64,000 bases of DNA from a virus (taxonomy: Duplodnaviria; Heunggongvirae; Uroviricota; Caudoviricetes): IMG/VR virus record IMGVR_UViG_3300023371_000071. One strand, written 5' to 3'. Position numbers and translations under genes: made by a program. The notes under the pieces are model-generated. The model ran no database searches and was not told the DNA's origin. It was given only the letters and a program-made list of their open reading frames with translations. The stretch's first letter is position 1. Each line of letters starts with the position of its first letter. Positions 1-64,000 of the stretch are shown piece after piece.

Positions 1-1
1 T

Positions 2-1285
2 CACCACCACGCAGAACCCGACGGACAAGACCCAGCAATAATTGTTAATAACCAGATGTGCGACTATGATAATAAGTGTCTATCTGGTGTTGGTGTAGTC
101 TATAAATTTTGTAAAGTTTTAGATGATCTAATTGGTGTATCATATGCTGACGATTTCCTTGATTTGGTCGCTCTTGGAATGGTTGCTGATATGATGGATT
201 TGCGTTCTTTTGAAACGAAGCGATTGATTGATATTGGATGCACAGAAATTCATAATCCGTTCTTTGTCCATATGGCGAAAAAGAATGATTATTCTATGAA
301 GAGTAAAATTAATCCATTTACAATTTCATTTTATGTAGCTCCATTTATTAATGCAATCACTCGTAGTGGTAATGATGCAGAAAAGTTGCTGATCTTTGAA
401 TCTCTATTAGATCATCGAGCAATGCGATTAATTCCATCTGGTAATCGCAATCGTAAAGGATTAGAAGATTTACTTGTGGTTGAAGCAATCCGCGTTGCTG
501 GTAATGTTAAAAAGCATCAGGATGATGCAAAAGTTAAGGCACTTGATGATTTACGATTCCGCATTAATTCTGGAGAATGCGATTTTGGTATCTTGATTAT
601 CACTCTTGATAATCCTATTGATACCAATCTTACTGGTTTGTTAGCAAACCAAATTATGGCTGAATATGGTAAACCAACTTTGATTTTAAACAAGAGGATA
701 AACAATGAAACAGGAGAAATCACTTGGGAAGGTTCTGGCCGAGGCTTCATTACTCCTCATGTTAATGATTGGCGTGCTTATCTTGAACAATACGCTATGT
801 ATGCAGAAGGTCATGCGATGGCTTTCGGAGTTGGTTTTATCCCTGATCAGCTGACAGACTTTAAGCATTTAATGACCACTAGCCCAATGGATATTACAAA
901 GTCTTATGATGTTGATTTTGTATTCCAAATGACTGATAATTTTGATGCCGACATTCTTGATGTTGCAAAATATGATGAAATGTGGGGTCAAGGTTTAACT
1001 CAGCCGATGGTGGCTATTAAAAATATTTCTTTGAAGAAAGACGACATTCTTCTGCAGGGTAAAGGCACATTAAAACTTAAACTTGGTAATCATCGTACTA
1101 CATGCATTAAGTTTGGTGGAACCGATATTTATAATGAATTACAGTCTTTGTTCCCGTCTGATGATGCTACAATTAAGCTCAATCTAATCGGCACCTGTGC
1201 TTTAAATGATTGGGGTGGAAGCATTTCTCCCCAGCTAAAGCTGGTTGATTATGATGTGTCATATGTAGATACTTGGGGTTTTTAA
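2..1285 (+). CDS. RecJ-like DHH-family ssDNA exonuclease, 5'-truncated at the window edge
   Basis: The frame is open from position 2 and starts with HHH (a DHH motif). 'DLVALGMVADMMDL' matches the RecJ motif DLVALGTVADVVPL. A DHHA1-like region follows. TAA stop. Confidence 0.6.
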   Translation, partial: HHHAEPDGQDPAIIVNNQMCDYDNKCLSGVGVVYKFCKVLDDLIGVSYADDFLDLVALGMVADMMDLRSFETKRLIDIGCTEIHNPFFVHMAKKNDYSMKSKINPFTISFYVAPFINAITRSGNDAEKLLIFESLLDHRAMRLIPSGNRNRKGLEDLLVVEAIRVAGNVKKHQDDAKVKALDDLRFRINSGECDFGILIITLDNPIDTNLTGLLANQIMAEYGKPTLILNKRINNETGEITWEGSGRGFITPHVNDWRAYLEQYAMYAEGHAMAFGVGFIPDQLTDFKHLMTTSPMDITKSYDVDFVFQMTDNFDADILDVAKYDEMWGQGLTQPMVAIKNISLKKDDILLQGKGTLKLKLGNHRTTCIKFGGTDIYNELQSLFPSDDATIKLNLIGTCALNDWGGSISPQLKLVDYDVSYVDTWGF

Positions 1286-1286
1286 T

Positions 1287-1315
1287 TTGACAACTTCAAA
1301 AAGAAATGGTATAAT
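1287..1315 (+). promoter_or_regulatory. Consensus sigma70-type promoter (TTGACA-17nt-TATAAT) upstream of the helicase gene
   Basis: TTGACA at 1287-1292, an exact 17-nt spacer, TATAAT at 1310-1315. The gene start lies about 34 nt downstream. Confidence 0.55.
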
Positions 1316-1348
1316 ATAATTGTAGAAAATAGGAAAGTAGGAACTTAA

Positions 1349-2509
1349 ATGATACTGACTGCTAAGCAAGAAGAAGGTCTTAAGATTGCGGTCAAGCGTT
1401 ATAAGGACCACGAACCTTATACTTGTATTGCTGGTTATGCCGGGACAGGTAAAAGCACACTTATTCGATTTATTATCAGTGCATTGAATATTGATCCTGA
1501 TGATGTGTGTTATGTAGCCTATACCGGCAAAGCCGCGCAGGTTTTGCGTTCAAAAGGATGCCCGAATGCAATGACCGCACATAGATTACTATATAAATCT
1601 GTACAAAAGGATGATGGAACATTTGTTCATTTTCCGAAGCGTCCATTATTTCCTTTTGCTCTAATTGTTGTAGATGAAATTTCCATGCTACCAAAACCAA
1701 TGTGGGAACTTTTATTATCTCATCGAATTCATGTAATCGCTCTTGGTGATCCCGGTCAGCTTCCGCCTGTTATGGCTGAAAGTAATGGTGTGTTGGATAC
1801 CCCGCATATTTTTCTGGATGAAGTTATGCGACAGGCTGCCGAAAGTGAGATTATCCGTTTAACAATGGATATTCGTGCAGGAAAAGGTTTGACTCCTATG
1901 TTGGGCCAAGAGGTAAGAATTGTAGGGCGTGAAGAACTCCTACAACCTGGTTTTCTTGCATGGGGAGATCAGATTATTTGCGGTAAAAATGAAACCCGCA
2001 ATCAAATTAATAGAGTAATGCGACAGATCAAAATGAATACTGAAGGAATTGAACCTTTAGTAGGAGACCGAATTATCTGTCTGCATAATGAATGGGAATG
2101 TATAAATCTAACTGGTGATGCTCTTGTAAATGGTTTGAGTGGCACAATTACTGATTTGAAATATACAAATGATAACCCATTTATGGAGAAAACTCCCATC
2201 ATCGACTTCCAGCCTGATATTGATGACAGTGACACCTTTAGAGGATTAGAAGTCGATTATAAGCTTTTCACTGAACATGTGCCGACTGTGAACAAAGAAA
2301 CCTTCAAGAAAATTCCTAAGTTCTATCGACCCAAGGAGTTTGATTATGGATATTGCATTACTTGCCATAAAGCGCAAGGTAGCGAATATGATAAGGTTAT
2401 TGTTCTTGAGGAATACTTGAGAGGTGAAAGCAAAGATGGTCATTCTCGTTGGCTTTATACTGCTGCTACTCGCGCTGCCAAGAAATTAATTATTGTGAGG
2501 AATTATTAA
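1349..2509 (+). CDS. SF1 DNA helicase, Dda/RecD-like
   Basis: Walker A 'AGYAGTGKST', Walker B 'VVDEISML', and 'CITCHKAQGSEYDKVIV', which is the helicase motif VI found in RecD/Dda/Pif1. At 386 aa it is Dda-sized. Confidence 0.8.
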   Translation: MILTAKQEEGLKIAVKRYKDHEPYTCIAGYAGTGKSTLIRFIISALNIDPDDVCYVAYTGKAAQVLRSKGCPNAMTAHRLLYKSVQKDDGTFVHFPKRPLFPFALIVVDEISMLPKPMWELLLSHRIHVIALGDPGQLPPVMAESNGVLDTPHIFLDEVMRQAAESEIIRLTMDIRAGKGLTPMLGQEVRIVGREELLQPGFLAWGDQIICGKNETRNQINRVMRQIKMNTEGIEPLVGDRIICLHNEWECINLTGDALVNGLSGTITDLKYTNDNPFMEKTPIIDFQPDIDDSDTFRGLEVDYKLFTEHVPTVNKETFKKIPKFYRPKEFDYGYCITCHKAQGSEYDKVIVLEEYLRGESKDGHSRWLYTAATRAAKKLIIVRNY

Positions 2510-3258
2510 TGATTATGATCGCCGGCCCATGCGCCGTGGAAACTGCGACTGACACTTATAAAATCGCAGAGGAATTAAGTAAATATGATAAAAAAATCAT
2601 TCTGCGTGGCGGTTGCTGGAAACCCCGCACTAGACCAGATTCCTTCCAGGGGCTCGGAGAGGTCGGCGTTGATATGCTTGTTGCTGCGTATGAATTATAT
2701 GGACTACAAGGGTGCTGTTTAGAGGTAATGAGTAAAAAACATTTGGATTATGTTATTAATCATTATCCAGAAAAAAACATTATTCTTCAAATTGGCTCTC
2801 GTAATATGCAAAATTTTGAACTACTTAAATTAGTAAGTTCTTATTCTAAGGAATATGGTAATACAGTACTTCTAAAGCGAGGCTTTGGAAATACCGTTGA
2901 TGAAATGTGTGGAGCGAGGGATTATTTACAGCATGACAATGTTATCTTATGTGAGCGTGGTATTAGGACTCTGTCTGATGCTAGTCGTTTCACTTTGGAT
3001 TTGTCCGCCATCCCTGTGTTACAGCAAAAAACTGGGTGTCGAGTTATCGTGGACCCATCCCACGCTGCTGGAGAGAGAAGTCTGGTATCCGGATTGGCAC
3101 GGGCTGGTATCGCCGCAGGAGCAGATGGCTTGGAAATTGAGGTAAAATCAATGTTTGCCAAGTGTCCGCGTAAATGCGATGAAGCACAAGCTCTCCCCAT
3201 AGATGAATTTTATGTTTTAGCACATGTGTGTGAAGATATTGACAAAATCTTAAAATAA
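2509..3258 (+). CDS. 3-deoxy-D-arabino-heptulosonate-7-phosphate (DAHP) synthase, type I-beta-like (KDO8PS/DAHPS fold)
   Basis: 'IAGPCAVE', 'LRGGCWKPRTRPDSFQGLG' (compare Thermotoga DAHPS 'RGGAFKPRTSPYSFQGYG'), 'IGSRNMQNFELLK', 'VILCERGIRT', 'RFTLDLSAIPV', 'VDPSHAAGERSLV', 'AGADGLEIEV'. The ATG at 2509 overlaps the upstream stop (TAATG). GAGG ribosome-binding site. Confidence 0.75.
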   Translation: MIMIAGPCAVETATDTYKIAEELSKYDKKIILRGGCWKPRTRPDSFQGLGEVGVDMLVAAYELYGLQGCCLEVMSKKHLDYVINHYPEKNIILQIGSRNMQNFELLKLVSSYSKEYGNTVLLKRGFGNTVDEMCGARDYLQHDNVILCERGIRTLSDASRFTLDLSAIPVLQQKTGCRVIVDPSHAAGERSLVSGLARAGIAAGADGLEIEVKSMFAKCPRKCDEAQALPIDEFYVLAHVCEDIDKILK

Positions 3259-3278
3259 TAATATAAGAGGTATATAGT

Positions 3279-4283
3279 ATGCAATATGCTGATAGCAAAA
3301 ATTTATTTGACCAACTATCTGAAGATTTTTCCAGAAAGTGTACAACAACTTCTCAGCCTATTAATTATCTAAAATTCTGTAATAACAATGGCCAAATTAA
3401 TACTGATTTGGATATTCAGCGAGGTTACCAATGGGATGAAAAACGTCAGCAAGAGATGTGGAACAGTTTGCTGCTTAATGCTCATATTCCTGAATTCCAT
3501 GCATTAATCCGCAATGATATTTACGACATTATTGATGGTAAACAGCGACTATTAACGATCTTTAAAATCATCAATGATGAAATTCCTCTGAAATACAGCT
3601 ATGCAGGTCCCGAGCTGCACTGGCTTTTTACTCAAGGAAAAAATAAAGATGCTCTTGTCCGACAGATTAATTTTTCTTGTTTACCAAAGGAGTTGCAATA
3701 TCGTATTTATAATACTACGATTTTGATTACTACTTACTCTAATCTTGACAGAGATGAACAAATTATGCTCTTTAAAAAAATTAATAATGGTAAAGCATTA
3801 AGTGATTTTGCAAAAGGATTGTGCGAAAATTTCTTTATCCGCAAGGATGGTACTGCTGAAATGCTAAAGCATTCTGTGTTTAAAAATTCAGAATGGAAAG
3901 ATGAAGAACAAGAGGCAATTGAGAAAGCGTTAGTTCGCTTTATGATTCTTAAGCATAAAAATATGGTAGTTTCTCTAGAACCCACAAAGATGATTAGTTA
4001 CTATCCTGAATTTGATCGTGACGTATTAAATTTGAGCGTTAAGCAAGTAAATGCTGTCTTAGATCGTATTCCCACTTTGCATAAAATTCTTAAATGCCGC
4101 GCTTGGGAATCTTATTTTCCAGCATTTTTAATAGTAGTTGATCGTCATCCTGAGCTTACAGCAGAACAAATTGACACCATGCTTGTAAAAATTCGTTCTT
4201 GTACTGCTGGGCGCGGAGCTGATTTAAGAGCCAGTATTGTTGCTGAACGCATCGACACTGTAGAATCTTTAATTGACAATTAA
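3279..4283 (+). CDS. DUF262 (ParB/GmrSD N-terminal nuclease-like) domain protein
   Basis: 'DLDIQRGYQW' and 'IIDGKQRLLTI' (the DGQQR-type DUF262 motif). No recognizable DUF1524/HNH half. Confidence 0.6.
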   Translation: MQYADSKNLFDQLSEDFSRKCTTTSQPINYLKFCNNNGQINTDLDIQRGYQWDEKRQQEMWNSLLLNAHIPEFHALIRNDIYDIIDGKQRLLTIFKIINDEIPLKYSYAGPELHWLFTQGKNKDALVRQINFSCLPKELQYRIYNTTILITTYSNLDRDEQIMLFKKINNGKALSDFAKGLCENFFIRKDGTAEMLKHSVFKNSEWKDEEQEAIEKALVRFMILKHKNMVVSLEPTKMISYYPEFDRDVLNLSVKQVNAVLDRIPTLHKILKCRAWESYFPAFLIVVDRHPELTAEQIDTMLVKIRSCTAGRGADLRASIVAERIDTVESLIDN

Positions 4284-4301
4284 ACAAAATTATGATATAA
4301 T
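4273..4301 (+). promoter_or_regulatory. Consensus sigma70-type promoter with extended -10 (TTGACA-17-TGaTATAAT) upstream of dnaE
   Basis: TTGACA at 4273-4278, a 17-nt spacer, TG at 4293-94, TATAAT at 4296-4301. The -10 context 'AAATTATGATATAAT' is almost identical to the promoter at 11771. Confidence 0.55.
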
Positions 4302-4328
4302 ATATACAGAAATGATAGAAAGAGGTTC

Positions 4329-7300
4329 TTGGATATGTTTTTTAACTGTCATAATCATACGATGTATTCAAACCTCAGACTTCTGGACTGTATCATCAAA
4401 CCGAAAGACCTAATCGACCGTGCGATCGAATTAGGCCTTTCTGGTATTGCGATTACCGACCATGAAGCACTGAGCGCTCATATGGAAGTAAACATGTATG
4501 CGAAGAAAATTCGTGAAAAGCATCCTAATTTTACTATTGCGCTCGGTAATGAGATTTATTTGACTGACACAAGAGAGAAAGGTCAGCCATACTATCACTT
4601 TATTTTGATTGCTAAAGATGCTATTGGTCACAAAGGTTTGCGTGAGCTTAGCTCTAAGGCATGGTATAATTCTTATTTTGATCGAGGTATGGAGCGTGTT
4701 CCTCTGCTCAAGAGCGAGTTAGAAGAAATTATGACTCGATACAAAGGTCATATTATGGGTACTACTGCCTGTATGGGCGGTGAGCTGTCTAAACTGATTG
4801 TGGAATATCAGATTCTCAAAGAAATGAATCAGCCCAATCAGGAAATATTTTATAAGATGCAGGATTTCATTCAGTTCTGCATGAGAGTATTTGGTCCAGA
4901 TGATTTCTATATTGAATGTGCGCCATCTACAATGAAAGATCAGATCATGGTCAATCGGTGTCTCGGTGAAATGGCACAACTTTATGGATTGAATTTGGTG
5001 CCGGCTACCGACTCTCATTATCTCAGTCCTGAAACAAGATTTGCGCATAAGGCATATTTGAACTCTAAGGGCGGAGATCGAGAAGTTGATAGCTTCTATG
5101 AATTTGCGCGTTTGATGGATGAAAAAGAAGTGAGAGAACTTCTACTTCATTCTTTTGAAGAAACTACTGTTGATATGATGATGCATATGACAGAAGATAT
5201 GCGTCAGAAAATTGAGTGGTATTCTTTGGAAAAACCGCAGCAGATTCCTGTTGTAGAAGTTCCAACTAGAAACGCTGGCTTTCTTGGGTGGGGAATTTGG
5301 CAAGAATATCCCACGCTTTATGATATTAACCTTAATGGCAATGAACAAGAGCAATATTGGCTTGATTGTTGCATGGAAGCTTTGGTAAATAAAGGACTTG
5401 GTGAAGATGTCTACCTCGAAAGACTCGAAATTGAAGCAGACGTTATTCGATATATTGGCAATCGTCTTGGGACTTGTTTGTTTGCCTACTTTAATACTTT
5501 CAAGCACTATATTGATTTGTTCTGGGAGTGTGGTAGCATCGTCGGTCCTGGCCGTGGATCTGCCACTGGTTTTCTGTCTAATTATCTCCTTGGTATTACT
5601 CAGCTAAATCCTATCAAGTGGAATCTTCCTTGGTGGCGTTTCTTGAATAAAGAACGTGCGGAATTGCCTGATATTGATATCGACCTTGCTCCTTCCAAGC
5701 GAGCTGAAATCTTTCAGCGTATTCGTGAAGAACGTGGAGAAATGGGACTGATTCAGGTTATTACATTCGGTACTGAAGGTTCTAAGTCTGCAATCTTGAC
5801 CGCCTGTCGTGGTTATAGAATGTTAGATGAAGATGGAATTGAAATGTTTCCTGATGGTATTGATGTTGACGTCGCTCAGTATATTGCATCTTTGATTCCA
5901 TCCCATCGCGGTTTCCTTTGGAGCATCAAGGATGTTGTATATGGCAATAAGGATGAAGATCGTCAGCCTATTGCCGCATTCAAGAGAGAAGTTGACAAGT
6001 ATCCTGGACTTTTAGATATTATCTTTGCGATTGAAGGAATCGTGAAGCAGCGTGGTTGTCATGCATCTGGTGTCATTATGTATGAAGAGGATAAGATTTA
6101 TGACACCGCGGCGATTATGAGAACTCCTTCTGGTGATCTTGTAACCTGTTATGACCTTCACATGGCAGAGGCTGCTGGTGACACTAAATACGACTTCCTT
6201 GTAACCGAAGTTTCTGACAAAATCATTAAGGCTCTTGAACTGATGCAAGAGGATGAAGTAATTGATCCTGATATGAGTTTGCGTCAGATGTATGAAGAGT
6301 TCTTGCATCCTGAGCATATTGATACAACCGATCCCGAAATTTGGGAAGCACTTGCAGAGGGTAGCGTATTGGATGTATTCCAGTTCAGCGGTGGCGTTGG
6401 TTTGGCGATTGCAAAGAAGCTTCGTCCAACTGATCCTCTGGAAATGACCGCAGCGAATGCAATGATGAGACTTATGTCTGAAAAGGGTAAAGAGTCTCAG
6501 CAGGATAGATATGCTCGTATCAAGAGTCAAGGAATCAGAGTCTTCGATATGGAAATGAAAGAGCATAATCTGCCGAACAGCATGATTAAAGCAATGCATA
6601 AACATTGCGACAAGTATTATGGCTGTTGCGCAATTCAGGAACAGATGATGGAGATTCTGATGGATCCTGAGATTGCAAGTTTCAGTTTGAAAGAGGCAAA
6701 TGATGCTCGTAAGATTGTTGCTAAGAAGCAAATGTCTCGTATTCCCGAGCTTAAAGGTAAGGTTTATGATGTAATGGATCAGCGACTCGCTGACTATGTG
6801 TGGGAAGTTGCGGTAGCTCCTCAGTTGGGTTATGCATTCTCCATGAATCACTCTCTGCCTTATTCTTTCGTCGGTATTCAGACAATTATCTTAGCACGAA
6901 AGTTTGATCCGATTTATTGGAACACTGCATGTTTGATTGTAAACAGTGGTGCAACAGATGAAGATCTTGAAGGTACAACGAACTATGGAAAAATCGCAAA
7001 AGCCATTGGTGACATTCGAAGTGCAGGAATTGCAGTCTCCACGGCAGACATTAATAAATCTAAATATGGATTTTCTCCAGACGTTGGAGAGGGCACAATC
7101 ACCTACGGACTTAAAGGTCTACTCAATGTTGGAGACGATGTCATCGCAGACATTATTGACAAACGCCCTTTCACTAGCTTCGGAGATTTCCTTGGCAGAG
7201 TCAAGTGCGGAAAACAGGCAGTAATTTCTCTTATCAAGGGTGGCGCATTTGATAGCTTTGGTGAGCGTAAGCGCATTATGGCTGAATATTTGTGGTTGAA

Positions 7301-8189
7301 CTGCGATAAGAAAAAGAGAATCACACTTCAGAATATGAATGGTTTGATTCAAAGAGGTCTGCTGCCTGATCATCTTAGTCTGCAGAGCAAGGTTTTTGAG
7401 TTTAATCGTTACTTGAAAAATGTATGTAAGTTGACTGACGGTTATTATGTTCTGGATGATAGAGCGTATGGATTCATCGACAGATTCTTCCCTGATGTTC
7501 CTCTGGAAGTATTTGGTCCGACTTATGCAATGAATCAGAAGTTGTGGGAAAAGGTATATCAACAGCAAATGGATTTTGTGCGTGAGTGGATGAAAGCTAA
7601 TCAGGACGAAGTTCTATATCAGCTGAATAAGAACATTTTTGAGGAAGAGTGGAAGAAATATGCTTCTGGTAATTATTCTTCTTGGGAAATGGAAGCATTA
7701 TGTTTCTATTATCATGAGCATGAGTTGAAGAACGTCAATCGCGCACGATATGGAATTAGCAATTTCTTCGATCTGCCAGAAGAGCCGATTATCGAAAAGA
7801 CATTTAAGCGTGGCGGTATTGAAATTCCGATTTATCGTTTGAATAGAATCTGCGGCACATGCATCGCTAAGAATAAAACAAAAGGTACAGTATCTCTGTT
7901 GACTCCTGAGGGTGTTGTCGAAGTTAAGTTTAGAAATGAATATTTCAGTTTGTTCGACAAGCAGATTTCTGTGCGTGGCGCTGATGGCGTAAAGCATGTT
8001 GTGGAAAAGTCTTGGTTCAATCGTGGTTCTATGATTATGGTAACTGGTATTCGCCGTGGTGATGATTTCATTCCGAAGAAATATGCAAGCACAGTTGGTC
8101 ATCAGCTGTATAAGATTGAAAACATCACTTCTAATGGTAGCCTGACTCTTAAAACGGAGCGCGCAAGCGGGGAGGCCGAAGAAGAATGA
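4329..8189 (+). CDS. dnaE: DNA polymerase III alpha subunit (DnaE-type, PHP domain plus polymerase core)
   Basis: N-terminal PHP motifs 'CHNHTMYS' and 'ITDHEAL'; the hallmark 'GPGRGSATGFLSNYLLGITQLNPI'; 1286 aa; TGA stop. Confidence 0.9.
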   Translation: MDMFFNCHNHTMYSNLRLLDCIIKPKDLIDRAIELGLSGIAITDHEALSAHMEVNMYAKKIREKHPNFTIALGNEIYLTDTREKGQPYYHFILIAKDAIGHKGLRELSSKAWYNSYFDRGMERVPLLKSELEEIMTRYKGHIMGTTACMGGELSKLIVEYQILKEMNQPNQEIFYKMQDFIQFCMRVFGPDDFYIECAPSTMKDQIMVNRCLGEMAQLYGLNLVPATDSHYLSPETRFAHKAYLNSKGGDREVDSFYEFARLMDEKEVRELLLHSFEETTVDMMMHMTEDMRQKIEWYSLEKPQQIPVVEVPTRNAGFLGWGIWQEYPTLYDINLNGNEQEQYWLDCCMEALVNKGLGEDVYLERLEIEADVIRYIGNRLGTCLFAYFNTFKHYIDLFWECGSIVGPGRGSATGFLSNYLLGITQLNPIKWNLPWWRFLNKERAELPDIDIDLAPSKRAEIFQRIREERGEMGLIQVITFGTEGSKSAILTACRGYRMLDEDGIEMFPDGIDVDVAQYIASLIPSHRGFLWSIKDVVYGNKDEDRQPIAAFKREVDKYPGLLDIIFAIEGIVKQRGCHASGVIMYEEDKIYDTAAIMRTPSGDLVTCYDLHMAEAAGDTKYDFLVTEVSDKIIKALELMQEDEVIDPDMSLRQMYEEFLHPEHIDTTDPEIWEALAEGSVLDVFQFSGGVGLAIAKKLRPTDPLEMTAANAMMRLMSEKGKESQQDRYARIKSQGIRVFDMEMKEHNLPNSMIKAMHKHCDKYYGCCAIQEQMMEILMDPEIASFSLKEANDARKIVAKKQMSRIPELKGKVYDVMDQRLADYVWEVAVAPQLGYAFSMNHSLPYSFVGIQTIILARKFDPIYWNTACLIVNSGATDEDLEGTTNYGKIAKAIGDIRSAGIAVSTADINKSKYGFSPDVGEGTITYGLKGLLNVGDDVIADIIDKRPFTSFGDFLGRVKCGKQAVISLIKGGAFDSFGERKRIMAEYLWLNCDKKKRITLQNMNGLIQRGLLPDHLSLQSKVFEFNRYLKNVCKLTDGYYVLDDRAYGFIDRFFPDVPLEVFGPTYAMNQKLWEKVYQQQMDFVREWMKANQDEVLYQLNKNIFEEEWKKYASGNYSSWEMEALCFYYHEHELKNVNRARYGISNFFDLPEEPIIEKTFKRGGIEIPIYRLNRICGTCIAKNKTKGTVSLLTPEGVVEVKFRNEYFSLFDKQISVRGADGVKHVVEKSWFNRGSMIMVTGIRRGDDFIPKKYASTVGHQLYKIENITSNGSLTLKTERASGEAEEE

Positions 8190-8410
8190 TGAACGAGAAA
8201 GTGATGAAGTGGCGATCGTCGCCACTTCATCGTAAATGTATTTTTTGTAAACACTTAAAATTTATAACCATACCGGCTCATCTGCCATGTAATGATTACT
8301 ATAAATGTGTTGCTAAAGACAAATATATTGATTATTGTTTGCCAGATATGACAAGAGCTCCAAGACCGTTTTGTAAATTATTTGAATTAAATACGGAGAT
8401 AAAAGAATGA
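8186..8410 (+). CDS. Small Cys-rich hypothetical protein, possibly a zinc-binding fold
   Basis: ATGA overlap with the dnaE stop suggests translational coupling. 7 Cys and 3 His in 74 aa. No recognizable homologue. Confidence 0.35.
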   Translation: MMNEKVMKWRSSPLHRKCIFCKHLKFITIPAHLPCNDYYKCVAKDKYIDYCLPDMTRAPRPFCKLFELNTEIKE

Positions 8411-9003
8411 AATATATTGTAGCACTTATTGGCAAGGCAGGAGCGGGAAAAGATACAATTGCTCAGGGCTTAGCTACACTCAATCCTGACTGGAATATGA
8501 TTGTCTCTTGTACAACCCGCCCTCGTCGAGAAAATGAAGTTGAAGGTATCAACTATTATTATCTTACAAATGAGGAGTTTGCGCAGAAAGTACTGAATGG
8601 CGATATGCTTGAAGCTACTTATTTCAACGATTGGCATTATGGTACTATGGCTTCTTCTCTTCACGAAGGTGTAAACATTGGTGTTTTCAATCCTGAAGGC
8701 TACGATTGTCTTACAGAGATGGGCGGCGGAGAAATCAAAGTTATTGGCTTCTATATCAATAGCGATGATAAAACTCGTCTACTGCGCCAGCTTAATCGCG
8801 AAGAAAACCCTGATGTTCATGAGATCGTCCGCCGCTTTAGCGCAGATGAAGAAGATTTTTATGATATTGATAACGATCCAGACTATCCTGTATATGTAAT
8901 TCAAAATGGAAGAGATACTTCTCTACCATATGTTGTACATGAAGTCAATAAAATCATTCACGCGGTTCTAGATATTGTGCCTCTTGTGGGCAGTCATGAA
9001 TAA
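8407..9003 (+). CDS. gmk: Guanylate kinase-like (d)NMP kinase
   Basis: P-loop 'GKAGAGKDT'. The guanylate-kinase signature 'TTRPRRENEVEGINYYYLTNEEF' (compare TTRPPRPGEVDGVDYHFV). 'YFNDWHYGT'. ATGA overlap with the upstream gene. Confidence 0.65.
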   Translation: MKYIVALIGKAGAGKDTIAQGLATLNPDWNMIVSCTTRPRRENEVEGINYYYLTNEEFAQKVLNGDMLEATYFNDWHYGTMASSLHEGVNIGVFNPEGYDCLTEMGGGEIKVIGFYINSDDKTRLLRQLNREENPDVHEIVRRFSADEEDFYDIDNDPDYPVYVIQNGRDTSLPYVVHEVNKIIHAVLDIVPLVGSHE

Positions 9004-9066
9004 TTTATTGGGCGAAATTTTGAAATATCATGTCTACCCTATTTTATAACTCAGGAGGTCAATGAA

Positions 9067-18683: not shown

Positions 18684-19364
18684 TTAGTTTGCTGGTGGAG
18701 GTGGTGGAGGCGGGGGAGGATTACATCCACACTCCTCGGGTTTACTTCCATTCCAATCAGAGTTTTTTGGCCCTTCCTCAGGCTTTACTAAACCAAGCGC
18801 AGTTAAATAAGTTTGAGAAAGGCGAAGAGAAGCAGGACGAGACTGACGCCAAGATCTGAGTTCTTTAACAATGCTAGAAGAAGCTTGCATTAATTCAAGA
18901 TAACCAGCGCCCATTTGTGCCAATGTATATGTTGGCGCAAGAGTGTCTTGAATCAAACCAATGCGCTGGGCAATAGTCTGACTACGTTCATCTTCTGGAC
19001 CATTAGACAATTTAAAGTCTAAATAGTTACCAAATACAGAGCAATATTGATGAACAATCGCGCACCAGGCACTCATAAAATCATTCCAGGGAAGCTTATC
19101 CTCAGTAAGAATAAGAGTTGGAAATTCATGTTCAATACGAATGAACATGTCTAAAGTGTCCTGAGAAATTGTAAATGCACCATCGTCCTCTCCCGGTTCC
19201 CAAGCTGTGATGGCATCAATTTGCTCCAATACTCTAATCATAATTAATGAAAGTTGCGGCTGAATGGCTGTTAAAATACGACCAATAGGACCCAAAGTAT
19301 CAATTTCTTTCATCACATGATAGCGGGCCTCGCCATAAGAAAAATTACGAATTTCAGTTAACAT
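18684..19364 (-). CDS. Hypothetical protein with C-terminal Cys-Gly-Cys plus poly-proline tail (CGCNPPPPPPPPPAN)
   Basis: 226-aa ORF overlapping the rSAM-2 stop by 11 nt. The C-terminus is encoded by a G-rich tract at about 18690-18730. Confidence 0.45.
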   Translation of the reverse strand: MLTEIRNFSYGEARYHVMKEIDTLGPIGRILTAIQPQLSLIMIRVLEQIDAITAWEPGEDDGAFTISQDTLDMFIRIEHEFPTLILTEDKLPWNDFMSAWCAIVHQYCSVFGNYLDFKLSNGPEDERSQTIAQRIGLIQDTLAPTYTLAQMGAGYLELMQASSSIVKELRSWRQSRPASLRLSQTYLTALGLVKPEEGPKNSDWNGSKPEECGCNPPPPPPPPPAN

Positions 19365-20742
19365 TTAACTCCGTTACCTCCTCAAGATATTTGAATTGCA
19401 CTTTCTTTTCTTCAGACAAATCTCTCCAAACTACACTCCACACCCCATGTTCTTGTAGCCATTTCATTTCAGTATAAATCATAGCATGAGCTACTGCACA
19501 TACAGTAGGAATTGGAGTAATTAAATTACGAGTGCATTCATATTGAGCACCAAGACAGGTGCCAGTACATAATTCATTAATAGGACATTGCGCACAATGC
19601 GGCAAAGATGCTTTATGCATAGAATATGTTGAAATTAACAATTCCGGATTGATGCATTCAAATTTCAAAATTTCTTTTTCATCAGGCACCAATTTACCAT
19701 AATACATATCTTCATATCCTGTGCGGTGACATGGATACATCATTAAGTCACTTACACGTAATGTAAATTGGCTTTGAATACCGCAGGTAAGACCACGTCC
19801 ACAAGTTGTTAAAGGCTGACTAAACATATTAAAACCATTTGCTTTAACTAACCAGCCTGCCATAGCATATGGATCTTTATTAATTTTATTTTCCCATACC
19901 CAATCAAGAACAAATCTCATAAATTTACACAAAGACTGAACTTGATCATAATTCCATTCTTCATTGCGGACATGCAATAAATACAGGCTCTCCCATGGGA
20001 TATTGTGTTTTTCCATCATTTCTTGGAACCACAAGAAATTTTGAGGCCATGCATCAATATTTCTACTATATACCATTGGATGCAAGCCACCATGAATCAT
20101 ATGAGAAAATTGAAATGCACGATCATAGTACTCGTCATCTCGCACACCACCACCCAAATCCACATCTAGATCATGTAGATAAGGACGATTGTCTTCCATA
20201 TATTTTCCATCAAAACTCGCACTAAGACCTAGAGTAATACCTATACTTTCGAATTTAGCATGAAGTTCTTTTACTCTTGCAGTTGCTTCTTCAGAACACA
20301 CAAAAGTAAAATTAGTAGGAATTACAATTTCAATTGGACGATATAAAGGATCTAAATCCTTAAAATGTTCATAAATAGTTTCTAATACTTTATATCCAAC
20401 TTCTTGAGCTAATAATTCACCAGAGAAAATTTCAATGTTAGCGTTCCAATCATTATGAGTGTACCATTGTAAAATAGTTTTTAGATTTTCAATAGTACGC
20501 TCTTCGTTGAAACAATCTTCACTAAAAATCTTTTTGCGATGACGATGTAAATAACAATATCTACAACCTAAATTGCAACGCGGTGAAATAATTAACTCAA
20601 TATTTTTCATTTTCTGATCTCTTGGGGTATCAATAGAGAAATCATCATAAAAATATTTCTCAATTACCCAAGCGCCCAATTCATGATTTTCTTTTTGATA
20701 TTGAGACAAACCAGTATCATTTACATTGCAATGCTCGGCCAT
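19354..20742 (-). CDS. Radical SAM enzyme with C-terminal SPASM domain (rSAM-2)
   Basis: 'CNLGCRYCY' (CxxxCxxC). C-terminal 'CAQCPINELCTGTC' (Cx2Cx5Cx3C SPASM motif) with further Cys residues. GAGGAG ribosome-binding site. Confidence 0.8.
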   Translation of the reverse strand: MAEHCNVNDTGLSQYQKENHELGAWVIEKYFYDDFSIDTPRDQKMKNIELIISPRCNLGCRYCYLHRHRKKIFSEDCFNEERTIENLKTILQWYTHNDWNANIEIFSGELLAQEVGYKVLETIYEHFKDLDPLYRPIEIVIPTNFTFVCSEEATARVKELHAKFESIGITLGLSASFDGKYMEDNRPYLHDLDVDLGGGVRDDEYYDRAFQFSHMIHGGLHPMVYSRNIDAWPQNFLWFQEMMEKHNIPWESLYLLHVRNEEWNYDQVQSLCKFMRFVLDWVWENKINKDPYAMAGWLVKANGFNMFSQPLTTCGRGLTCGIQSQFTLRVSDLMMYPCHRTGYEDMYYGKLVPDEKEILKFECINPELLISTYSMHKASLPHCAQCPINELCTGTCLGAQYECTRNLITPIPTVCAVAHAMIYTEMKWLQEHGVWSVVWRDLSEEKKVQFKYLEEVTELNVN

Positions 20743-22133
20743 GGTTTCATCGCTCCTCTATTTACTAAAATTTTATAATATCGCATCATTTCTTCCACAG
20801 CACCATTGCCTAATAAACGCAAATAACTGCAAGGTACAATAGAAGGATTAGTTGTATAGTCTTCCTCAACGCCAATATGACAATATAATCCACAAGTCAT
20901 CATAAACATTAATAAACGATCATCTTCATTATATGCATATTTACTGTTGATTTGTCCAGCGCAAGCCATTGTTACAGCCATTTGATCAAAGAAATATTTT
21001 CTAGACATAATATCGGCATGGAAAGACATAGAACCATAAGTGCGTTTCATCCAAACCTTATCATTAGTATTCATATTACATCCACTTTGCATTGCATGCT
21101 TAGTCTTCATTTTTTCATCAAGAGCTGCATTACGACAGAGACGATTACAAGTATAAATATTTCCTTCATGATCAATAGTAATATTATTCTTACTAGCGGA
21201 ACAAGAATAAGAATTTTCTTGTGTCGCAATAGGATTGCCAGCTTCTGCTTGGAAAAATACTTCAGGTCCATTAAATAATTGACCAAAAAGAGGGCGACCA
21301 TCATAGCAAGGTTTATCTTGTACATTTACTCTCGGTAAAAAGCTAAGCCATTTTGCAAATGTCTCACCATCTTCTTGAGTATAATAGCCTGGGTCAACCA
21401 AAGTTGGGCAACCCGCAATTTGTAAACTAATATTTTTTTTACCTTCAATTAATTTATCGCATTCAACTTGTAAATCATTGAAGAATTTATAATACCAGTT
21501 AAATGAATCAATTCCTCTCTCATTCATAATTTTCATATAACTAACATCTAATGTAGCTTTAGTATTAATTACAAGAGAGAAATATTCCATATCTGCAGGA
21601 CAACGAGTTAAAATTTCTTTCATAGTTTTAATTGTGCTCGCAGTCGCTCCAGGATGACGAGAATCATCATTAAATTCAGGTGGACCATCTAAAGACATTT
21701 GAAGATTAAAAGTGATTTTACGTTTGTGGTGAGTTGCATAAACCATCATTGGCAAGAAAAAATCTTCATAAATGCGATCGCCCAAAAGAGCATTAGTAGA
21801 AAACATTACATCTTTAGCATTTGGATAATAGTCAAATAATGCTTCAAATGTTGCTCGCCAGTACTGACTATTAATTGTAGGTTCTGCGCCCCACAAACTT
21901 ACATTTTCAATAGCATCACGGATGCCTGCGGTGACACGTTTAACATTTTCTACAAAAGTTCCATCTTCAAGTGCTTGACGAATATCTCTATTATAAGAAG
22001 CCATGCACTTTTTTTCTTTTTCAATATAACAATATTTACATGCCATATTGCAATCTGATGACCAGTGTAGGCTGACGCTGGCTATATTAGCCAGCGCTTC
22101 GCCTAAATAATCAAGAGAAGGAATTTGTTTCAT
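20721..22133 (-). CDS. Radical SAM enzyme with SPASM/twitch-like Cys-rich C-terminus (rSAM-1)
   Basis: 'CNMACKYCY'. C-terminal 'CSASKNNITIDHEGNIYTC' (C-x13-GxxxxC) and 'CNRLC...CGLYCHIG...PC'. GAGAGGAG ribosome-binding site. Overlaps rSAM-2 by 22 nt. Confidence 0.8.
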   Translation of the reverse strand: MKQIPSLDYLGEALANIASVSLHWSSDCNMACKYCYIEKEKKCMASYNRDIRQALEDGTFVENVKRVTAGIRDAIENVSLWGAEPTINSQYWRATFEALFDYYPNAKDVMFSTNALLGDRIYEDFFLPMMVYATHHKRKITFNLQMSLDGPPEFNDDSRHPGATASTIKTMKEILTRCPADMEYFSLVINTKATLDVSYMKIMNERGIDSFNWYYKFFNDLQVECDKLIEGKKNISLQIAGCPTLVDPGYYTQEDGETFAKWLSFLPRVNVQDKPCYDGRPLFGQLFNGPEVFFQAEAGNPIATQENSYSCSASKNNITIDHEGNIYTCNRLCRNAALDEKMKTKHAMQSGCNMNTNDKVWMKRTYGSMSFHADIMSRKYFFDQMAVTMACAGQINSKYAYNEDDRLLMFMMTCGLYCHIGVEEDYTTNPSIVPCSYLRLLGNGAVEEMMRYYKILVNRGAMKPWPSIAM

Positions 22134-22154
22134 ATCTCCGTTTTCTCCTCTCGC

Positions 22155-23648
22155 TTAATTCGAGTAATTTCTTGAATAATAATTACTAGTATAATTACCA
22201 GTTTTATTGCCAGAATTATATGTAGAATAGTTACCAGACTTATAAGTGGTATGATAACCTGTCTTATAGCTAGTATAATCCGCGGTATCATAACTATGAT
22301 TGGTGCCATTATGAGAACTCTTGGCGCCACTGTCATTAGAAGAATAATAACTTCCATGATGGGAGGTATAATCCGCGCTATCATAGCTATAATTACTCGT
22401 TTTATAAGTTGTATAATGCGTTTTTGCGCTTGCATTATAACCACCATGATTACTTGTGTAATCTGCACTATCGTGAGAATATTTTCCACCATAGTGAGTA
22501 GTATAATTTGCGCCTTTTGCAGATGCATTATAAGTAGCAAAATTGCTGCCATTATATCCGGCATAATGAGTGTACTTTCCACTGTTATATCCAGTATAAT
22601 CTCCACCATTAGCAGATGCGTAATATGAGCCTTTGTGCGTAGCATAGTTTGTGCTATGATAGGCATAATTACCACCATTGTGGACGGAATAATGTGCATT
22701 TGCTGTTGTATAATATCCGCCAAAATTATTAGTATTATAAGAACTTAAGTGACCAACTTTTTCACTCTAATAATGTGTACTATTATGACCAGATTTATGT
22801 GTAATATAATATGTTTCATAATGAGCAGTATTTTGCCCAGTATAATGATTAACATAATAAGAAGTTTTTACTGTGGCATTATAATTAGTATAGTTTGCAG
22901 TATCATAAGTTACATAATGAGTAGTATAATATGTGGCATTATTTGAAGTATTGTAGCCTGCATAATGGCTATATTTTTGCGCACCATTATGTGTATCAAA
23001 TTCAGTACTAAATTGATTACCAAAATGATCTGGACAATGTGAAGTATTATAAATTTGATAGTGCGTAGTATAATAATTAGTATAATACGCTTTATGGTTA
23101 CTACTATAATCCGCAGACTTATGAAGACGATTGCCCGTATAATAAGTTCCATGGAACTAATAATGAGCACTCTTATACGTTACATAATTTGTTGTATTAT
23201 GTTCATAATTTCCACCAAAATAAGAATAATAATGAGTACCATTATGAGTAGTATAATAATCTGCATAATGATTCGTATAATAACTTGCATTATGACCATA
23301 TCGATGACTGTTAAAATACTCAGTATAATAAGAATTATGCCAAGCTGTCCAGTTATTAATATCATATCCGGTATAATAATTTACTAAATGCCCTGTATAA
23401 TAAGCATCATTATATCCAGATTTATGACCTGATTTATAAGATGAAAGATGCCCGTTATAATATGTACCTTTTTCACCATTGTGATGGGTAGCATAATGTC
23501 CACTATAATGTGAACTTAAATGTCCGCTCAAGTGCCCTGAATAATATGCAGGGCAATGAGCAGCTTCTTGGGCCTAAATTGCAGTTAATGGATTATTTAA
23601 GTCAGAAGGAATAATTTTATTTCCTTTGACTGCTGTTGAAGTCGCCAT
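22155..23648 (-). CDS. Tyr/Ser/Thr/Asn/His/Gly-rich low-complexity tandem-repeat protein 2 (about 497 aa), with 3 in-frame TAGs
   Basis: ATG at 23646-48 with AAAGGAGG 9 nt upstream. Frame-continuous through TAGs at 23574, 23157 and 22768 to a TAA at 22155. Sequence of the type '...GHLSSHYSGHYATHHNGEKGTYYNGHLSSYKSGH...' with no aliphatic residues. The antisense and off-frame ORFs in the ORF track are I/M/V-rich mirror images. Confidence 0.6.
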
Positions 23649-25060
23649 TGTGGATTATTCCTCCTTTTTATTAAGTTACAGTAACATTATGCGATTTATT
23701 ACCAGCACGATAAGCGGTATAATTAGAAGTATTATAAGTGCCATAATTAGCAGTATAATAACCTGTCTTATAATTACTATGGTTACCACTATTATAACCA
23801 CTCCAGTGAGAATTACGAGCAGCATTTTGACCACTATTATAAGAGCTATCATGTCCACTCTTATTACCTGAATAATGACCACTATTATATCCGCTCCAGT
23901 GAGAACGCTGTGCAGTTAAATTAGAGTTATTATATGTTGCATAGTTACCGCTTAAATGACTTGTATAATAACCACTATTATAACCACTCCAATGATTATT
24001 ATAAGTGGAATAATTTGAACCATTATGACTGGTGTAATGACCACTTAAATGTCCTGTATAATTACCATTATTTTCAGAGCTTCTATGAGAAGTATATACA
24101 GTCTTATTATGATTAGTGTAATGCGTAGCATAATAACCACTTAAATGCCCTGTATAATCACCTGCATTGTGAGATACATAATGAGCTCTATAACCAGTTT
24201 GATATCCCATATTATGACTAGAATATCGTCCTGTATAATGAGTAGTATAATTATTACTATTATAAGTTGAATAATGATTATTTTTTCCTGTGTATTGAGC
24301 AGTATAATTAGAGCTTAAATAGCCAGAATTGTATCCAGTATAATTAGCTGCATCACGACTAGTGTATTGAGTACCATTATGCCCTGAATAATGCGTTTTT
24401 TGTCCTGCTTTATTTGTACTATTATAGGTCGAATAATGAGTTGTATAATTAGTAGTTTTTGCTCCACTATTATAGGTGGAATAATGAGAGCTTCTGTGAG
24501 CATAATCATATGTTTCAAAATGACTATCATAAGCAACAGCACGGTGAGATTTTGCTCCAATATGATAAGTGGTATATTGAGTACCGTAATAGCCAGTATA
24601 ATGACTATTTTGATTAGTATAATGACTATAATAATAATTATTATAATTAGTACTCTTATAAGAACTATCATGTGAACTATAATAACCACTATAATATTCT
24701 GCATTATGACTTTCAAATTCTGCCGCTCTATGATAAAAATGACTTTTTTCAGTAGTATTGCGAGTTGTATAATGAGTTGCATAATAAGTAGCATTTCTAC
24801 CGCTGTAATGTGGAGCAAAATACGTATTATAATGAGCTTCACGATGAGCAGAATAATAAATACCACATGCTGCCCAGTTATCAAAATATTGCCAATTACT
24901 ATGATGAGATCCATAGAAATCGGAATTATGAGTTGTATAATAGCTACTATAATGACTACTCTTATAACTACTTTCTCTGCCGCTATAATATGTTGCATTA
25001 TATGAAGTATATTGTGTTGCATAAACCGTAGATTTATGCGCATTTAAATATCCTGCATTA
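22155..25060 (-). repeat. Degenerate coding tandem repeats (TAT/TAC-, AGT/TCT-, CAT-, AAT-rich) spanning both Tyr-rich genes
   Basis: About 2.9 kb of extreme low complexity. All three frames on both strands stay open except at TAG. Repeat unit roughly 5-8 codons of the form x-Y-x-[ST]-[GN]-H. Confidence 0.7.
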
Positions 25061-25287
25061 TAAGCGGCACAACCGTAATTGATAGAACCAGCTTGGCTAT
25101 CAATAACATCCGATAATTCTTTAGGCGAATTATAATTTAATTTAGAATTATAAACTGCAATAGGATCATGTTGCCAATTATATTTGGCTAAACCCAATTT
25201 ATCAGTTCTAAAATTATCAATTCGATTTCGAACTAATAAATAATCAGAATATGCAGTTTTCTAACCCGTTGAAACTGGTACCGCCAT
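23671..25287 (-). CDS. Tyr/Ser/Thr/Asn/His/Gly-rich low-complexity tandem-repeat protein 1 (about 538 aa), with 1 in-frame TAG
   Basis: ATG at 25285-87 with AAGGAGGG 6 nt upstream. TAG at 25261. Non-repetitive N-terminus of about 85 aa ('MAVPVSTGQKTAYSDYLLVRNRIDNFRTDKLGLAKYNWQHDP...'), then [S/G/T/N]-Y-x-[S/T/G]-H-type repeats. TAA stop. Confidence 0.65.
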
Positions 25288-25316
25288 TCGTTCGCCCTCC
25301 TTTATCTCTATAAAAT

Positions 25317-25345
25317 ATTATAACAAAAATTTTTATCTATGTCAA
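25317..25345 (-). promoter_or_regulatory. Consensus sigma70-type promoter (TTGACA-17-TATAAT) driving the Tyr-rich/rSAM operon
   Basis: On the minus strand: TTGACA (reverse complement of 25340-45), an exact 17-nt spacer, TATAAT (reverse complement of 25317-22). The ribosome-binding site and ATG of Tyr-rich gene 1 lie about 25 nt downstream. Confidence 0.55.
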
Positions 25346-25351
25346 AAAAAA

Positions 25352-25377
25352 ATATGGCCGCAATTAAGCGGCCATAT
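25352..25377 (-). terminator. Rho-independent terminator after the tail-fibre gene
   Basis: ATATGGCCGC-aattaa-GCGGCCATAT hairpin, followed on the minus strand by T9. Confidence 0.7.
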
Positions 25378-40418: not shown

Positions 40419-40453
40419 AAAACGATTTTCTCCTTCCTCTCAAAAAATAAAAA

Positions 40454-40479
40454 GGGCAAAGTGCAGTGTCACTTTGCCC
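40454..40479 (-). terminator. Rho-independent terminator
   Basis: GGGCAAAGTG-cagtgt-CACTTTGCCC hairpin, followed on the minus strand by TTTTTATTTTTT. Confidence 0.65.
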
Positions 40480-40499
40480 TGTGTAGTAAAATTTATAAA

Positions 40500-63400: not shown

Positions 63401-64000
63401 TTTTCTGTATCAGTAGATGATTCTAACCACTTATCCAAAGCAGTTTTGCCTGCTGTATCTTTGGTAATATCATCTAACCCTAAAAGCAGAGATAATAATT
63501 TGCGATCTTCTGACGTTAAATTATCAAAATCAATTAAAGCATCTTCTGTATTTGCGAATTTATTTAAAATTTCATATAATGTATTTGAAAATAAAATTGA
63601 TTTAGACAATGCATTGTCTTGTGAATTTGCGATATATTGCCATTCTTCACCAATTTTTGCAAATTGATCTTGAGTTAAAATACCATACTATTCTAATAAA
63701 TCTAACTCTTCTTGTGAGATCAATCCACCCTCTTGAATTGTTGCTAAAATTTCAGACAATGCAGGAATAGCATTTTTAAAATTTAATAAATTATCGGTTG
63801 AACGAGATGATTGTGTCTAATGATAATTGTTTAATCCATCAACTTGTGATAAATCTAAAGTTCCACCTTTTGTAAAAAGGCTTAAAATTTTATTTATATC
63901 CCCATTAGCCCAATCTTTAATTAATTGCTATTCGTAACCACTAAGTTCTGATAACATTTTTTGCTATCTTCTAGTTAACTAATTGCCAAATTCGCCCCAT
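57481..64000 (-). CDS. Tape-measure protein, 5'-partial (over 2170 aa in the window), many in-frame TAGs
   Basis: All-helical coiled-coil ORF fragments at 57481-58185, 58210-58905, 58972-59586, 59824-60195, 60307-61011, 61510-61794, 61948-62376, 62707-62916 and onward share one frame. They are joined by TAGs at 58192, 58198, 58210, 58972, 59824, 60307, 61510, 61948, 62707 and others. C-terminal glycine-zipper 'GAVLGAVVGGVVGGGVGSKVGGTVGAIIGSGV'. Internal poly-Gly 'GGGGGGGGGGGGG' (about 60499-60540). TAA stop. Confidence 0.65.

Follow-up and report, generated by a model that had tools for sequence, protein, structure and literature searches.

A 64,000-nt stretch of DNA from a tailed phage (Caudoviricetes; IMG/VR record IMGVR_UViG_3300023371_000071), hereafter the window, contains four perfect copies of a bacterial promoter consensus. 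Three of them (P1-P3) precede replication and nucleotide-metabolism genes on the plus strand, and the fourth (P4) lies on the opposite strand, in front of an operon encoding two tyrosine-rich (Tyr-rich) proteins and two radical S-adenosylmethionine (rSAM) enzymes. By its sequence, the window is part of a large gut-type phage of about 170 kb that reads the stop codon TAG as glutamine. The question raised by this locus is whether these sites are promoters for the host RNA polymerase and, if they are, what sets the timing of the genes behind P4. A first-pass annotation of the window had proposed that the P4 operon, although on the "late" strand, is transcribed like the early genes and is gated after transcription by its in-frame TAG codons. 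Our analysis suggests, with a probability of about 0.8, that P1-P4 are functional promoters for host RNA polymerase carrying the housekeeping sigma factor (sigma-A in Firmicutes, of the sigma-70 type). That TAG codons set the timing within the units headed by P3 and P4 we propose only tentatively, as a call slightly short of even.

The four promoter sites and their conservation

Both strands of the window were searched for the exact motif TTGACA-N17-TATAAT. The search returned four matches, precisely those listed by the first-pass annotation, as compared with a mean of 0.06 in dinucleotide-preserving shuffles, none of which (0/100) reached four (Poisson P = 5e-7).

1287-1315, plus strand: P1; TTGACA at 1287-1292, a 17-nt spacer ending in TGG, TATAAT at 1310-1315; the -10 ends 33 nt before the ATG (1349) of a RecD-like helicase gene
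4273-4301, plus strand: P2; TTGACA-17-TGaTATAAT; the -35 lies within the final codons of the GmrSD_N gene, whose stop codon (4281-4283) falls inside the spacer, and the -10 ends 33 nt before the DnaE ATG (4335)
11771-11799, plus strand: P3; TTGACA-17-TGaTATAAT, overlapping the last codons and the stop codon of NrdG; the -10 ends 30 nt before an ATG at 11830
25317-25345, minus strand: P4; TTGACA at 25345-25340, a 17-nt spacer ending in TGT, TATAAT at 25322-25317; the -10 ends 29 nt before the ATG (25287) of the first Tyr-rich gene

All four sites are intergenic or at gene ends, and each has the orientation of the next gene, with 29-33 nt between the -10 and the start codon and a Shine-Dalgarno sequence in between. 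The spacer is exactly 17 nt and a TGn triplet directly precedes the -10 in all cases (TGG, TGA, TGA and TGT in P1-P4), as had been described. Judged by these elements (consensus -35, 17-nt spacer, TGn extended -10 and consensus -10), P1-P4 would belong to the strongest class of such promoters. Finer details of the earlier description needed correction: the -10 context of P2 and P3, said to be identical over 15 nt, is identical over 12 nt (TTATGATATAAT) and matches at 13 of the 15 claimed positions; the "AT" said to follow the -10 is present in P1, P2 and P4 but is "TG" in P3; and the spacers, described as A-rich, are A/T-rich in all four sites, with A and T equally frequent (7 each) in that of P4.

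Below the perfect sites the signal drops sharply, with no graded series of near-perfect matches. Three sites in the whole window match at 11 of the 12 positions (53691-53663 on the minus strand; 3239-3267 and 59473-59501 on the plus strand), and weak promoter-like matches (at least 9 of 12) occur at chance level (57 found, 60.5 in shuffles). The string TGnTATAAT occurs nine times, with 7.5 expected, and four of the nine are P1-P4. The signal above chance is confined to the perfect sites.

Two of the 11/12 matches have features of their own. The one at 3239-3267 (TTGACA-17-TATAAG, no TGn) ends 11 nt upstream of the ATG (3279) of the GmrSD_N/DUF262 gene and, if active, would yield a nearly leaderless mRNA; a related contig, L002, carries other genes at this position, so that GmrSD_N is possibly an accessory gene, expressed from a weak promoter of its own. 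The match at 53663-53691 (TTGACA-17-TGgTAGAAT, with TGn) lies within a TAG-rich open reading frame (ORF) of 1997 aa, as either an internal promoter or a chance match.

Examining related contigs revealed promoters at the same four positions down to about 48-50% protein identity. L001 and L002 (a relative with a 78%-identical DnaE) have perfect promoters at the P1, P2 and P3 positions, the P1 orthologue of L002 (7419-7447; 12/12 with TGn) standing in a diverged spacer and flanks. The P2 orthologues are perfect in L002, L003 and L004, and the P3 orthologues in L002, L009, L013, L014 and L015 (rSAM identity down to about 48%). P4 loci of the relatives were fetched through their rSAM homologues, and the orthologous site matches at 12/12 positions in L005, L006, L007, L008, L013 and L014, at 11/12 in L010 and at 10/12, with TGn, in L015. 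Pairwise identity within each set of orthologues was as follows.

P2 set: -35, 1.00; -10, 1.00; upstream 30 nt, 0.51
P3 set: -35, 1.00; -10, 1.00; upstream 30 nt, 0.37
P4 set: -35, 0.93; -10, 1.00; upstream 30 nt, 0.34

When the sites were aligned at the -35, information content peaked on the -35, the TG and the -10 only and was about 0 in the flanks. Although P2 and P3 reach into the ends of the preceding genes, the hexamer is retained where the C-terminal coding sequence differs. These patterns indicate that selective constraint acts on the promoter elements specifically, and, together with the consensus itself, they uphold the earlier assignment of the sites to host polymerase with its housekeeping sigma factor.

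A conserved operator in the P4 spacer was considered and rejected. This spacer is near-identical in L005, L007 and L013, but the P3 spacer is equally similar in L013, and both spacers differ in L014 and L015, so that the similarity reflects relatedness rather than a site. No operator-like repeat around P4 is conserved, the direct repeat present in the window not being kept in L007.

Carrying the search beyond the window, as the first-pass annotation had proposed, showed that its family of four is a lower bound. L017, a contig that matches the window at 100% identity and continues for another 8.6 kb to the left, adds one 12/12 and one 11/12 site, which precede a helix-turn-helix gene and the YorH and DnaB genes. 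Further sites follow each 2.5-5 kb on the same strand in an L002-type genome, and more promoters of this class are present in the replication region of L020, another relative; at least 5-6 sites thus lie along the replication module. No perfect site was found in ~40 kb of tail-gene DNA upstream of the P4 position in five relatives. This distribution, dense in the TAG-free replication module and empty in the relatives' tail DNA, fits an early class, a timing that we infer for P1-P4 by analogy with the early promoters of phage T4 (PMC2988021). In the scheme we propose, P1-P4 would fire at DNA entry, with no activator required, and P1-P3 together with at least two sites left of the window would act as successive boosters along the replication and nucleotide-metabolism module.

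A similar leader follows many promoters of this form, reading TATAAT-atatatgt-AAGGTTGA(g/t)a or AAGGT(a/g)A. It was seen beyond the left end of the window in the same phage (L017, 2380-2400), and in distant relatives (L016, 203-215, 1582-1595, 5169-5180 and 8651-8662; L020, 6396-6410 and 9579-9592), and might represent a 5' stem-loop or a processing signal.

The units behind the promoters and the phage that carries them

P4 lies directly behind a terminator-like hairpin, a feature overlooked by the first-pass annotation, and the unit that it heads is followed by a second hairpin and by the lysis genes. All features listed here are on the minus strand.

25352-25377: terminator-like hairpin, ATATGGCCGC-TTAATT-GCGGCCATAT, with a 10-bp G+C-rich stem
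18353-25287: predicted P4-driven operon of six cistrons, each with its own GGAGG-type ribosome-binding site (RBS)
23671-25287: Tyr-rich protein 1; one TAG, at codon 9
22155-23648: Tyr-rich protein 2; three TAG
20721-22133: rSAM/SPASM enzyme 1; no TAG
19354-20742: rSAM/SPASM enzyme 2; no TAG
18684-19364: 226-aa gene; no TAG
18353-18667: 104-aa gene; no TAG
18322-18348: second terminator-like hairpin, after the operon; its T-run leads directly into the endolysin RBS and ATG (18299)
16329-18299: endolysin (SpoIID, SH3_3, PG_binding); three TAG
15975-16328 and 15558-15962: two membrane-protein genes, the lysis cassette spanning 15558-18299
15529-15552: terminator after the lysis cassette

The T-run of the first hairpin (25351-25344) merges into the -35 of P4. 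A hairpin with a T-run is found at the same place in L005, L007 and L013, with stems of different sequence; because the structure is kept and the stem sequence is not, which is the pattern expected of a conserved terminator, we regard it as one. With 12 of 12 matches and TGn, P4 bears out the claim that the operon on the "late" strand has the same promoter type as the replication genes. Gene order and position of the operon, between the tail genes and the lysis genes and on the tail-gene strand, are the same in L005-L015, and the operon thereby appears as a conserved core feature of the phage family, which had also gone unremarked. P4 would restart transcription after the terminator closing the tail-gene array and would drive the Tyr-rich/rSAM operon.

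A hairpin also occupies the position of 18322-18348 in L005, L007, L013 and L015, with unrelated stem sequences, and too little space is left between it and the endolysin ATG for a promoter. On the minus strand from 25317 to 14570, no site of at least 11/12 and no TGnTATAAT was found. Nor did inspection by eye of the minus-strand gaps detect a second promoter class, the gaps being mostly too short and two of them consisting of a hairpin and then an RBS. Since they have no promoter of their own, transcription of the lysis genes would depend on polymerase reading through from P4 or from a start farther upstream. The lysis cassette, too, is probably fed by P4, another point missed at first pass; the promoter would supply the endolysin and membrane-protein genes through partial read-through of the second hairpin.

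The endolysin's layout, a terminator and then an RBS with no promoter, recurs within the tail-gene array. At 40430-40500 (minus strand), a strong hairpin and T-run (cagggcaaagtg...cactttgccc tttttatttttt) lead directly into the RBS and ATG of a 2437-aa gene, suggesting attenuation or read-through control in this array.

The two Tyr-rich proteins (22155-25287) are ~500 aa each and, after a conserved N-terminal region, consist almost entirely of short repeats of the Tyr/His-x-Ser/Asn/Thr type, for example HCPAYYSGHLSGHLSSHY. The only family matches of the two rSAM/SPASM enzymes (19354-22133) are weak and sub-threshold, to peptide maturases, among them PapB, YhhB, HxsB, DynA and other cyclophane or thioether formers. 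Together, the Tyr-rich proteins and these enzymes look like a giant, protein-sized substrate-and-maturase system akin to those of ribosomally synthesized and post-translationally modified peptides. This rSAM system is conserved in the whole family of ~170-kb phages (about 70 homologues), with substrate genes ranging from 135 to 568 aa.

The G+C content is 0.32-0.335 across 20-26 kb, as compared with 0.38-0.41 in the flanks. This low G+C and the flanking hairpins prompted us to consider the operon as a moron, a reading ruled out by its conserved synteny in L005-L015; the Tyr-, Asn- and Ser-rich coding would in any case produce a low G+C.

The modules of the window as a whole are as follows.

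56-13462, plus strand: replication and nucleotide-metabolism module (RecJ-like, RecD-like helicase, DAHP-synthase-family, GmrSD_N, DnaE, guanylate-kinase-like, NrdD, NrdG, dUTPase)
1349-11784, plus strand: genes served by P1 and P2 (helicase, DAHP synthase, GmrSD_N protein, DnaE, guanylate-kinase-like, NrdD, NrdG); no TAG
~64000 down to 14674, minus strand: very large tail-type genes, then the Tyr-rich/rSAM operon, then the endolysin

The window starts inside the RecJ-like gene, the 409-aa ORF from 56 (window 1-1285, plus strand) being the C-terminal part of that protein read from an internal ATG; the full gene, on L017 (8201-9937), encodes 578 aa with DHH and RecJ_OB domains. At the right end, a TAG-rich ORF is still open at position 64000. 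The DAHP-synthase-family gene at 2509-3258 (plus strand; PF00793, E = 7e-45), between the helicase and GmrSD_N genes, represents an auxiliary metabolic function that is unusual in a phage. Neither an Rfam scan nor a tRNA scan of the window gave a match.

The relatives lie on contigs of 107-190 kb, and the identical helicase is also present on contigs of 50-200 kb. Searching sequenced phages detected no close DNA relative, and a single-sequence search of IMG/VR with rSAM1 and with a 589-aa tail-region protein gave no close relatives; rSAM relatives were then obtained by an alignment-based search and from a protein database. With DnaE as query, a genome collection yielded no relative, and a metagenome scan yielded two short fragments only, both with P2. 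The nearest cultured DnaE relatives (38-39%) are in Enterococcus phages, SPbeta-type Bacillus phages and the recoded gut phage phAss-1, and YorF- and YorH-like proteins are encoded left of the window (L017). The host is likely a Firmicute, probably clostridial, to judge from these genes and from the SpoIID/SH3/PG_binding endolysin; the one lead from the genome collection is its best rSAM relative, of only 32% identity, in a metagenome-assembled genome of Oscillospiraceae.

TAG codons, timing and competing explanations

Reading TAG as a sense codon merges fragments into ORFs of 900-2158 aa, and all tabulated genes (41/41) end in TAA or TGA, none in TAG. In alignments of the endolysin, RuvC and Tyr-rich protein 1, relatives have CAA or CAG at most of the TAG columns. 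Across the plus-strand genes at 56-13462, Gln is written 151 times as CAA or CAG and never as TAG, a lack of TAG that extends to the replication genes of the relatives. On these features of its sequence, the phage is classed as one recoded from TAG to Gln (code 15) with standard-code early genes. The TAG at codon 9 of Tyr-rich protein 1 would likewise be read as sense, because the N-terminus is conserved on both sides of it.

The boundary between TAG-free and TAG-bearing genes falls inside the unit headed by P3, which is on the plus strand.

11830-14530: P3 unit; four TAG-free genes up to dUTPase, then RuvC and a 173-aa gene
12872-13462: dUTPase; TAG-free
13455-13943: RuvC; four TAG; its ATG overlaps the dUTPase stop codon
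14009-14530: 173-aa gene; one TAG
14540-14570: bidirectional (convergent) terminator ending the P3 unit

RuvC has no Shine-Dalgarno sequence of its own and is predicted to be translationally coupled to the TAG-free dUTPase. The sharp dUTPase/RuvC boundary is also present in L005, L007, L013, L014 and L015, and two RuvC TAG positions are retained in 6/7 genomes, at 60% protein identity; their persistence and the sharpness of the boundary argue for selection on TAG itself. A skew is also seen around P4, where the number of TAG among Gln-type codons, summed over seven genomes, is as follows.

Tyr-rich genes: 22/110
endolysins: 28/167
two rSAM and two small genes: 3/337

The partition among these gene groups gives a Fisher P of about 1e-11, with the related genomes treated as independent. 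No TAG was found in rSAM2 or the two small genes in any of the seven genomes (7/7), and all relatives examined have 3-8 TAG in the endolysin gene. Thus, TAG-bearing and TAG-free cistrons demonstrably share predicted units headed by consensus promoters. TAG usage is also strikingly gene-specific inside the tail module: the largest gene of the window (33105-40418, minus strand; 2437 aa, its relatives matching LRR_5) has 78 CAA/CAG and no TAG, next to giant genes with 18-22 TAG.

We propose that timing inside the P3 and P4 units may be set at translation by TAG. TAG-free cistrons (the replication enzymes and the two rSAM enzymes) would be made immediately, and TAG-bearing ones (the endolysin, both Tyr-rich proteins, RuvC and the gene next to it) would give truncated products until a phage suppressor tRNA(CUA) accumulates. 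In a stricter version, which seems to us unlikely, RuvC, the Tyr-rich substrates and the endolysin would have no separate late-promoter control in this family of TAG-recoded phages: activator-independent consensus promoters would serve them from the onset of infection, and suppressor-tRNA accumulation alone would time the full-length proteins. P4, the operon, the hairpin and the endolysin would then together form a lysis clock set by a genetic-code switch, and the modification pathway would be ordered, with the TAG-free rSAM enzymes preceding their TAG-containing substrates.

For the P4 operon, gating as advanced by the first-pass annotation is plausible and unproven: the codon-9 TAG read as sense and the skew of TAG towards the Tyr-rich genes are compatible with it and in some respects strengthen it, and several observations weigh against it. 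The Tyr-rich genes of L009 are without TAG, and rSAM1 has one or two TAG in L013 and L015, and in L010 the standard code breaks it into fragments. Five structural-type genes of 405-2437 aa have no TAG; with many tail genes TAG-free, TAG content is a poor clock of timing. TAG positions in the Tyr-rich precursors change fast between close relatives. Since TAT and TAC are one step from TAG, and the low-complexity Tyr-rich genes are probably tolerant of substitution, their TAG codons could be mutational, and the Fisher tests ignore phylogeny. A stop at codon 9 could also block transcription of the rSAM genes, through Rho-type polarity. A suppressor tRNA was not detected in a scan of the window, L002, L007, L014 and L017 (part of a ~170-kb genome). 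In L016, a distant relative on a 275-kb contig, the interval 5140-5281 holds a perfect TTGACA-17-TGaTATAAT that stands 21 nt upstream of a tRNA(CUA), called 'Pyl' by ARAGORN; a tRNA(CUA) behind the same promoter class would place the code switch early and make the delay short. This tRNA gene lies within an array of 24 tRNA genes, several others of which are preceded by promoters of the same form.

Much of this evidence would also suit a different account, which we consider quite possible, in which P4 is real but its unit is effectively late (through a silencing factor of phage or host or delayed DNA entry) or active throughout, and TAG is ordinary codon usage. The position of the operon between tail and lysis genes, on the tail-gene strand, favours it, as do the patchy TAG content of the structural genes, the TAG-free precursors of L009, the rSAM1 TAG codons of L010, L013 and L015 and the fast turnover of precursor TAG positions. 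A 12/12 promoter with TGn, on the other hand, requires no activator, and a silencer would have no conserved operator-like repeat at P4 to act on. Nor would ordinary usage readily account for the sharp dUTPase/RuvC boundary, the two persistent RuvC TAG codons or the consistent lack of TAG in rSAM2 and the two small genes.

It is also conceivable, but improbable, that the terminator and promoter at P4 form a mobile regulatory cassette or moron boundary, similar to the PeSL (promoter-early stem-loop) elements of T4-type phages, and mark mainly the recombination joint of an acquired module. A hairpin terminator directly upstream of a strong sigma-70-type promoter is indeed the arrangement of PeSL (PMC2839356), and the drop in G+C at 20-26 kb and the variable length of the genes behind P4 among relatives (135-568 aa) could be seen as traces of acquisition. 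Yet throughout the family, on contigs of 107-190 kb, the operon is retained and keeps its place, and no stem-loop adjoins P1-P3. The promoters are alike in their functional elements only, leaving no repeat to recombine on, and the low G+C is that expected from Tyr, Asn and Ser codons.

That the motifs are read by a sigma factor or RNA polymerase of the phage itself, with a specificity like that of sigma-70, is very improbable. SPbeta-type phages carry a polymerase gene of their own (YonO), the replication genes of this phage resemble those of SPbeta, and a gene of this kind could lie outside the window in the ~170-kb genome. Nevertheless, the motif is the exact housekeeping-sigma consensus, TGn included, and precedes replication genes that have to be expressed at a stage when no phage factor has yet been made; the window genes scanned included no sigma or polymerase gene. 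Functionless chance matches are refuted, for although the DNA is A/T-rich (32-41% G+C) and sites of at least 9/12 are no more frequent than in shuffles, four perfect sites stand against 0.06 expected, all of them between genes or at gene ends, pointing towards the next gene and conserved at orthologous positions while their flanks diverge.

Likeness to known promoters and recoded phages

As promoters, P1-P4 are ordinary in kind, such as would be expected of phage early genes relying on the host polymerase. The early promoters of T4 ("uber" promoters with UP, -35, TGn and -10 elements) occur in many copies in the early region, and transcript extension from them reaches downstream genes (PMC2988021). 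The recurrence of at least 5-6 sites along the replication module resembles these promoters, as well as T7 A1 and lambda PL. In contrast to T4, which infects E. coli, this phage probably has a Firmicute host, no UP element is conserved (upstream identity 0.34-0.51) and one member, P4, stands on the tail/lysis strand.

The sites also resemble promoters of Gram-positive bacteria. The extended -10 of sigma-A promoters in Bacillus subtilis and its phages, the "-16 region", has the form TRTG-n-TATAAT. TGn is present in all four sites, TATG precedes the -10 in P2, P3 and most orthologues, and the genes that follow have strong GGAGG ribosome-binding sites; P1 (AATG) and P4 (TTTG), in contrast, are not exact TRTG.

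P4, joined to a terminator stem-loop at a module boundary, recalls the PeSL of T4-type phages, which are repeated, mutually homologous, recombining cassettes in hyperplastic regions (PMC2839356). The sites described here differ in being alike in functional elements only, without mutual homology; P1-P3 have no adjacent hairpin and T-run, and the module behind P4 is syntenic across the family. Phage morons share with the P4 unit an own promoter, flanking hairpins, a lower G+C and functions that do not look structural, but the P4 unit is not sporadic, being in the same place in every family member examined.

Promoter analysis of this uncultured recoded phage family was not found in the literature, and a word search for 'promoter' found it in neither of two studies of recoded gut phages (10.1101/2021.08.26.457843; PMC10607447). 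In the former, Borges et al. (bioRxiv 10.1101/2021.08.26.457843) proposed that the recoding of stop codons regulates late and lysis genes of gut phages after transcription; the sample series behind one relative of the window, L014, was among those used in that study. The phage of the window shares with those phages and with phAss-1 (PMC10607447) the reading of TAG as Gln, replication genes compatible with the standard code, in-frame TAG in tail and lysis genes and the genome size of large TAG-recoded clades. What distinguishes it is that TAG-bearing and TAG-free cistrons share consensus-promoter units, including the coupled dUTPase/RuvC pair. The link between promoters and code switch is not demonstrated; it is an attractive and testable extension of the existing hypothesis. 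The promoters alone add little, and their value is as landmarks that define transcription units in uncultured recoded phages. The units so defined would place TAG-bearing and TAG-free cistrons on shared transcripts, with an endolysin that has no promoter of its own, and the published idea of recoding as a timer thereby becomes a concrete prediction on a few named cistrons.

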